From positions 1 through 38,467 of IMG/VR virus record IMGVR_UViG_2850796239_000007: 38,467 bases of DNA; one strand, 5' to 3'. Positions within the stretch are counted from its first letter, which is position 1, and the number at the start of each line of letters is the position of its first letter. Shown here piece by piece: positions 19,360 to 20,676 of this stretch. The position numbers and the translations under genes are program-made. Below the pieces are notes generated by a model. That model was not told the origin of the DNA, made no database searches, and saw only the letters and a program-made list of their open reading frames with translations. This DNA is from a virus (lineage: Duplodnaviria; Heunggongvirae; Uroviricota; Caudoviricetes).

Positions 19360-20676
19360 AATCTACCTCCCAAAACCTCATGAGGGGCAAATAGCTGCAT
19401 GGACGGCGGCAATAGAGGAACGCTTCCACGCGGTATGCTGTGGTCGTCGCTGGGGTAAAACGGTGATGCTGGTAAACATCGCTACCAGTTTCGCTACGCG
19501 GAAATTTGCCGTTCCTACCACCGGGCAACTTATCGCGGGTAGGGTGGGGATTTTTACCGCACAATACCGCCAGTACCAGGAAATCTGGGATGAAATTAGC
19601 GCCGTTCTGCAACCGCTGATCCTCAGCCAGTCAAAAAATGAAAAGCGCATTATTCTCCGTAATGGGGGCGCATCGACTTTTGGGTAACGGACAATAACAA
19701 ACTGGCCGGGTGTGGGCGTAAATATCACGCTGTGCTGATTGATGAGGCAGCATTCACTAAATCGCCGGAAATGCTCGAGGAAATCTGGCCCCGAGCTATA
19801 CGCCCGACGCTTGTCGATTACCGCGGCTGTGCGTGGGTATTTTCCACACCAAACGGTATCGACGAGAGCAATTTTTTCTACGCGATATGCCACGATGAAT
19901 CCCTGGGATTTGTCATGCACCATGCGCCAACTTCATCGAATCCGTATATTCCGAAAGAAGAACTGGAGGAAACGGAGAAGAAATCCGATCCGCGCGTCTG
20001 GCAGCAGGAATATCTTGCCGAGTTCGTGGACTGGTCCAAAGACGCGTTACTCGATGTCGATAAGCTGCTGGTGGACGGTCAGCCGATTGAGATGCCGCCG
20101 TACTGCGACATGATTTTCGCAGTGATGGATACGGCGCTGAAAGGCGGGACCGAAAATGATGGTACTGGCGTGTTGTATTTCGCTTATGAGTCAACGTATT
20201 CGGAAGAGCCAAAACTGACGATTATTGACTGGGATGTGACGCAAATTAAAGCGTCATTGCTTCCTGAATATATCCCCGGCGTTTATGACAACCTTGAGCG
20301 CCTCGCGAAATTATGCCGTCCGCGTCTGGGCAGCCAGGGAATTTTTATGGAAGACGCCGCGATGGGGGCAATCCTCAACCAGAAGGCGGAAACCGAAGGC
20401 TGGGATATGACGCCGATTAAATCGGCACTAACCAGCAAGGGCAAAGACGAACGGGCGGTGATGGCATCCAGCTACCACTATCAGGGGATGTGCAAAATCG
20501 TCCGGGAGGCTTACGACAAGACCGTTTCATTCAAGCGCACCACCGCAAACCACCTCATAAAACAAATCGCCGGATTCCACCTGGCGGATAAAGACGCGCA
20601 TAAACGTGCTGATGACCTTTTCGATTGTTACACCTATGGATTGATCATCGCGCACGGTAATTACGCGGAGTTGTAA
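19349..20676 (+). pseudogene. terminase large subunit, frameshifted near G5 run
   Basis: Walker A (CGRRWGKT) in ORF 19349..19687, Walker B (LIDEAAF) and nuclease part in ORF 19732..20676; frames switch within 19663..19687. Confidence 0.7.

Follow-up and report, generated by a model that had tools for sequence, protein, structure and literature searches.

The gene for the large terminase subunit (terL) of a prophage in IMG/VR record IMGVR_UViG_2850796239_000007 is split into two reading frames, which raises the question of whether the break belongs to the bacterium or to the record. The whole stretch of DNA analysed, here called the window, spans 38,467 nucleotides and is 100% identical to GenBank CP026875.1 (GCA_002950355.1, about 2,963,372–3,001,838). 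The initial annotation had placed Walker A in one open reading frame (ORF) and Walker B with the nuclease part in another, had held that the two frames could be joined only within 19663..19687, and had seen in this and several other breaks a single pattern suspicious for homopolymer sequencing error as much as for decay. The break is present in the record, but the flagged frameshift is best classed as not a real feature; comparison of assemblies makes it very probable that it is an artefact of CP026875.1 and no feature of the bacterium.

The two frames of terL and the protein they encode

The gene starts at an ATG located inside the 3′ end of the small-terminase (terS) ORF (Table 1). Its N-terminal piece carries Walker A (CGRRWGKT, nt 19439–19462) and closes with seven residues read out of frame, followed by a TAA. 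Frame 1 has a TAA at 19660–19662, is open from the next base and continues up to the stop at 20674–20676. The downstream ORF as listed begins at a GTG (19732) and contains Walker B (VLIDE, 19732–19746) as well as the nuclease part, in which the codon of the invariant D261 occupies 20128–20130. The distribution of these motifs over two ORFs was confirmed from the sequence, and the stops in frames 1 and 2 likewise confirm that the frames can be joined only in their overlap, which contains the GGGGG run and a TTTT run (19678–19681). The residues right after the G run in frame 1 (GRIDFW) include D110 and W112, both invariant in an alignment of 37 sequences, and the join is therefore placed at or beside that run. 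The downstream frame equals the upstream frame minus one, so one base is missing. Addition of one G to the run yields a 442-aa protein identical to that annotated in sister assemblies of the same prophage. Because this restored protein is the sister protein, matches a terminase profile and is colinear with 36 homologues, the split is no chance juxtaposition of unrelated ORFs.

Table 1. Positions of the reading frames, run-length deficits and other sequence changes discussed in the text (window coordinates unless indicated).
Feature	Position	Strand	Observation
copD/yebZ, G6 to G5	ca. 230 bp left of window position 1 (position 12851 of L029)		chromosomal gene
G5 (G6 to G5), edge of IS110 copy 1	13754..13758	+	G6 in ATCC 9905 and GCA_003572355.1
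terS, split into 86-aa and 251-aa ORFs	18269..19359	+	A8 to A7 at 18500–18506
terL, N-terminal piece	19349..19687	+	112 aa; frame 2; ATG 19349; TAA 19685–19687
terL, remainder	19663..20676	+	frame 1; GRIDFW, Arg-finger codon, Walker B, nuclease domain
G5 run in terL (G6 to G5), one-base deficit at 19664	19664..19668	+	G6 in all six sister assemblies and in the E. coli homologues read
TGT codon, Cys122 of TerL (R122C)	19711..19713	+	Arg in 36/36 homologues
Portal gene (Pfam Phage_portal_3)	20694..22130	+	intact
G4 (G5 to G4), end of IS110 copy 2	23488–23491	+	G5 in sister assemblies
G3 (G4 to G3), end of IS110 copy 2	23530–23532	+	G4 in sister assemblies
G4 (G5 to G4), 205-aa head-region gene	25734–25737	+	G5 in ATCC 9905
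C4 (C5 to C4), 205-aa head-region gene	25843–25846	+	C5 in ATCC 9905
84-nt in-frame deletion between 9-nt direct repeats	31601–31609 (gene 30561–31814)		445-aa structural protein reduced to 417 aa

The G-restored protein matches the PHROG family phrog_2, “terminase large subunit”, over residues 7–432 (E 4.5e-33). Searches returned 4109 homologues, many bearing the name terminase, and the protein aligns end to end and colinearly with 36 of them, down to approximately 50% identity. The Pfam model Terminase_6N scores 20.1 bits, below its cut-off of 22. Against solved structures, the single sequence by itself yielded no more than a marginal, mis-registered match to PDB 4ZNI (E 0.045), the ATPase domain of TerL from Thermus phage P74-26, which a family profile matched with E 9.5e-8; the register of the motifs on 4ZNI was accordingly taken from the profile search. 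Among the 37 sequences, the P-loop residues C31, G32, R33, R34, G36 and K37 are invariant (C31-G32-R33-R34-x-G36-K37) with T38 nearly so, and in Walker B (hhhhDE) no variation is seen at L130 and E133 and almost none at D132. Gene order is that expected of a terL, the gene (19349–20676) being flanked by terS and the portal gene. As judged from homology, motifs and gene position together, the gene is an unremarkable TerL family member. The family shares with P74-26 TerL a Walker A with a P-loop arginine, a Walker B of the hhhhDE form and, in the homologues, an arginine finger ten residues before the Walker B aspartate; a C-terminal nuclease with invariant acidic residues, encoded by a gene between terS and portal, is shared with the TerL proteins of tailed phages. 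The relationship to P74-26 TerL is nevertheless distant, and in the present lineage, unlike P74-26, the arginine finger is a cysteine.

This cysteine replaces the Arg122 of the homologues, which sits in an invariant LAGRGR motif; the arginine finger found in TerL is thus absent here, position 122 being Cys in the Shigella boydii lineage. In the profile match, R122 aligns with chain residue 144 of 4ZNI. The P-loop arginine corresponds to chain residue 44, which is native R39, giving a numbering offset of five, and chain residue 144 is therefore native R139 of P74-26, the only residue changed (to Ala) in the variant chain 4ZNJ. The R122C exchange is common to all sister assemblies and to the whole S. 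boydii lineage, and is for this reason regarded as a real substitution. We infer that it would abolish ATP hydrolysis, so that even the corrected TerL of this lineage is probably dead. The gene can thus be described as a TerL by descent that is predicted to be catalytically inactive.

Run lengths in related assemblies

Sister assemblies were retrieved by exact matches to the protein that the intact portal gene encodes. Six other assemblies carry the same prophage: S. boydii ATCC 9905, a member of the same lineage (GCA_000193915.2, identified through a published strain table), four NCBI drafts and one Logan contig representing nine SRA samples. All six have trkG upstream, the same downstream gene interrupted by an IS110 insertion, and A7 in terS. 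None is known to represent the isolate of CP026875.1, and all of them (6/6) carry G6 and an intact 442-aa terL. The comparison with related prophages that the initial annotation had proposed as a check thus returned an unbroken gene with one more G in every independent assembly, and the suspicion of a homopolymer error at terL is upheld. Beyond this lineage, a terL homologue is present in 86 of 5,426 complete E. coli genomes, at 93–99.8% identity. Each of the E. coli RefSeq matches listed (40 in one listing, and 60 drawn from all parts of the ranking in another) exceeds the query in length by one base and is annotated as a single terminase gene. Aligned relatives read AAT GGG GGG CGC (G6), as opposed to AAT GGG GGC GC (G5) in the window.

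Four of the five short sister contigs show no substitution against the window over 7.2–8.0 kb, and differ from it solely by the G's that the window lacks at 19664, 23488 and 23530. The closest strain, GCA_003572355.1, differs over 18,972 nt by 4 gaps and by no substitution, each gap being a G run that is one G short in the window, and ATCC 9905 by 5 substitutions and 7 gaps. In total, approximately 33.4 kb could be compared with the sisters, revealing 7 indels, in each of which (7/7) a G/C run of CP026875.1 is one base short: three G6 to G5, two G5 to G4, one C5 to C4 and one G4 to G3. This corresponds to about one such loss per 5 kb. In the 13.4-kb core, 4 of the 15 G/C runs of at least five bases differ from the sisters, compared with 0 of 147 A/T runs of at least four bases. 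Coding consequences are evident at two further loci. The chromosomal copD/yebZ, intact with 290 aa in ATCC 9905, is divided into 56 and 233 aa in CP026875.1, and the head-region gene, intact with 205 aa in ATCC 9905, is divided into 70 and 143 aa here only. The breaks attributed earlier to a G4 and a C4 run at 25805..25863 were correctly suspected to be homopolymer errors, ATCC 9905 having G5, C5 and an intact gene, but their position was not exact, the runs being those given in Table 1. The same suspicion was borne out for the G-runs in the IS110 copies, in which the sisters carry one more G.

Other breaks that had been assigned to this pattern are of a different nature. The A run of terS has eight bases in outgroups and seven in all six sister assemblies, including the Logan contig, which has the same split into 86 and 251 aa; given this agreement, the terS frameshift is considered genuine decay and not a sequencing error, as had been suspected. 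The A7 run does exist as annotated, at the position given in Table 1 and not at 18497. A T8 run suspected at 32645 breaks nothing: it forms an in-frame part (32645–32652) of an intact 205-aa gene, and reads identically in the sisters and in E. coli EC11. The single pattern originally proposed therefore holds for terL, for the G4/C4 runs and for the IS110 runs, and fails for terS and T8. Two further changes are regarded as real because they recur in independent assemblies, namely a C3 run at 27344, found in the same state in ATCC 9905, and the 84-nt deletion of Table 1, which the sister assemblies share.

The IS5-like elements allow a less direct comparison. Copy 3 (28351–28758) has C4 as against C5, at a locus type where short-read assemblies collapse IS copies. 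The resulting truncated 135-aa transposase ORF (C4) occurs at at least six loci of another complete genome from the same accession series, CP026824.1 (GCA_002949875.1; L032–L037), a recurrence which fits a systematic error but also a propagating variant. The comparison with CP026824.1 suggests that the whole accession batch to which it belongs shares an error profile. As a separate observation, some of the truncated IS5-like copies in CP026824.1 are adjoined by split gdhA and fliA genes.

Origin of the break

The explanation that we favour, and hold to be very probable, is that a run of six G's in terL would have been called as five in the consensus of CP026875.1. In the organism, terL would most likely be a continuous ORF of 1329 nt encoding 442 aa, a putative P-loop ATPase combined with an RNase-H-like nuclease, and would sit between terS and portal of a Rac-like, trkG-carrying, defective prophage adjoining yebY. 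The same consensus error, one base lost in a G/C run of 4–6, would recur through CP026875.1. A consensus-calling error is preferred to evolution because the differences are indels only, deletions only and in G/C runs only, and affect prophage, IS elements and chromosome alike. Real decay brings substitutions, and a mismatch-repair mutator brings many transitions; mutator-driven real decay was rejected since the indels are unaccompanied by substitutions relative to the closest strain. The profile resembles the homopolymer errors of assemblies made from long reads only, in that one-base run deficits are unidirectional and far outnumber substitutions, and in that prophage, IS and chromosomal genes are all affected. 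It departs from them in being restricted to G/C runs, of which approximately a quarter to a third of those with 5–6 bases are affected, while CP026875.1 has the right length in A/T runs as long as A8 and T8.

A G5 tract is also present elsewhere, and this bears on whether the deletion could be a private mutation of the strain. The exact 112-aa truncated TerL occurs on only 8 contigs, seven besides this record, on different prophage backbones. One of them (L004; GCA_033660265.1, JAWVHN010000001.1), of E. coli type, has essentially every homopolymer of at least six bases shortened (for example A8 to A6, G9 to G5 and T6 to T5) and many of its prophage genes fragmented; its G5 is clearly a technical error in a badly polished record of the long-read type. 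Two G5 contigs additionally have A8 to A6 in terS. Four others (L005, L006, L008 and L010; SRR12995729, SRR8989474, SRR16077999 and ERR10498935) carry G5 without any other homopolymer defect, and L006 differs from E. coli cq9 in 7.3 kb by 3 substitutions and the terL gap alone. Real slippage at the terL G tract may occasionally occur, and sporadic error is also possible. That the tract is a recurrent slippage hot spot, inactivating packaging independently in several E. coli/Shigella lineages, we consider rather unlikely; if true, it would represent one small, repeatable step in prophage domestication. In any case, the presence of G5 on other backbones does not re-establish the frameshift of this window as a real feature.

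Genuine, strain-private pseudogenisation would require that slippage in G6 deleted one G after terS had already been inactivated. G6 tracts are prone to slippage, and the four contigs with otherwise intact homopolymers are in line with such an event. The prophage is moreover decaying, as the lineage-wide A7 in terS, the IS insertions and R122C attest; with terS frameshifted and the arginine finger lost, terL would be under relaxed selection, and a real frameshift would carry no cost. The absence of any sister assembly known to derive from the same isolate as CP026875.1 also leaves room for this account. It would, however, demand that seven one-base deletions, each private to the strain, had arisen within 33 kb, all in G/C runs and all in one direction, in the face of 0 substitutions in 19 kb relative to the closest strain. 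Their density extrapolates to about 1,000 indels per genome, and the chromosomal copD is hit likewise, so that private pseudogenisation appears very unlikely.

Far less probable again is that the break is a recoding or switching device, whether a programmed −1 frameshift or transcriptional slippage at G GGG GC, or a phase-variable packaging switch. A −1 slip of tRNA-Gly from GGC (19667–19669) to GGG (19666–19668) would give exactly the ancestral ...NGGRIDFW..., and public data contain the G5 as well as the G6 allele. The split is nevertheless not conserved, the E. coli homologues listed and 6/6 same-lineage assemblies being single-frame with G6, and T GGG GGC, as read in the zero frame, does not fit the canonical X XXY YYZ pattern of a slippery heptamer. 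Tract lengths seen anywhere are restricted to 5 and 6, a G6 tract is shorter than typical contingency loci, and several of the G5 records show a generalised homopolymer collapse, as in L004. Programmed frameshifting and transcriptional slippage were therefore rejected on the universality of the one-frame G6 form in relatives, and phase variation on the G6 tract in 6/6 same-lineage assemblies.

The prophage and the consequences for its record

The prophage adjoins yebY and is arranged in the order integrase, recE/recT-type region, Q antiterminator, lysis cassette, trkG, terS, terL, portal, head and tail genes. A trkG potassium-transporter moron is located at 16511–17986, between the lysis cassette and terS. 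The Rac prophage of E. coli K-12, whose gene order we take to be lysis genes, trkG, ynaK and tail remnants, likewise has a trkG moron directly after the lysis cassette, and the left end of the present prophage, with its recE/recT-type and integrase genes, is also like that of Rac. Related E. coli prophages have a ynaK-like ParB/Srx gene before terS. In contrast to K-12 Rac, which has lost terS, terL, portal and the head and tail genes, this prophage keeps them; it also differs in sitting by yebY and in being riddled with IS elements. It is a more complete relative of Rac. In RefSeq, homologues of the portal protein (positions 4347–5783 of L001) are named “anti-CBASS protein Acb1 family protein”, a label which, on homologues of a Phage_portal_3 protein, looks like a naming quirk.

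IS110-family, IS5-like, IS2, IS911 and other IS3-family elements occur throughout the prophage, with the IS110-family and IS5-like elements interrupting structural genes. Two IS5-like copies of approximately 0.92 kb (6100–7024 and 8659–9583), inverted and 100% identical, surround a 1.6-kb segment with an ORF6N antirepressor-like gene, an arrangement resembling a composite transposon. To the left of the second of these copies, ATCC 9905 has other DNA, which contains an acyltransferase gene, indicating that an IS-mediated rearrangement separates the strains. Irrespective of the G run, the prophage is genuinely defective, given the terS frameshift, the IS elements in structural genes and R122C. 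The expectation that correction of the indels would make it look much more intact is thus met in part: terL and the 205-aa gene become whole, but the prophage does not become functional, owing to terS, the IS elements and R122C.

The terL frameshift is itself without new biology, and its importance lies in what it indicates about the record. By extrapolation, CP026875.1 over-reports pseudogenes, with approximately one spurious G/C-run frameshift per 5 kb, and sister records of the same accession series probably do likewise. A single prophage here combines artefacts (the G5 run of terL and the 205-aa head gene) with genuine breaks (A7 in terS, the IS elements and R122C), while copD, outside it, is again an artefact. 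As artefactual and genuine breaks stand side by side, each needs to be checked against independent assemblies. Pseudogene counts, calls of prophage “intactness” and studies of gene decay in Shigella that make use of CP026875.1 will be inflated.
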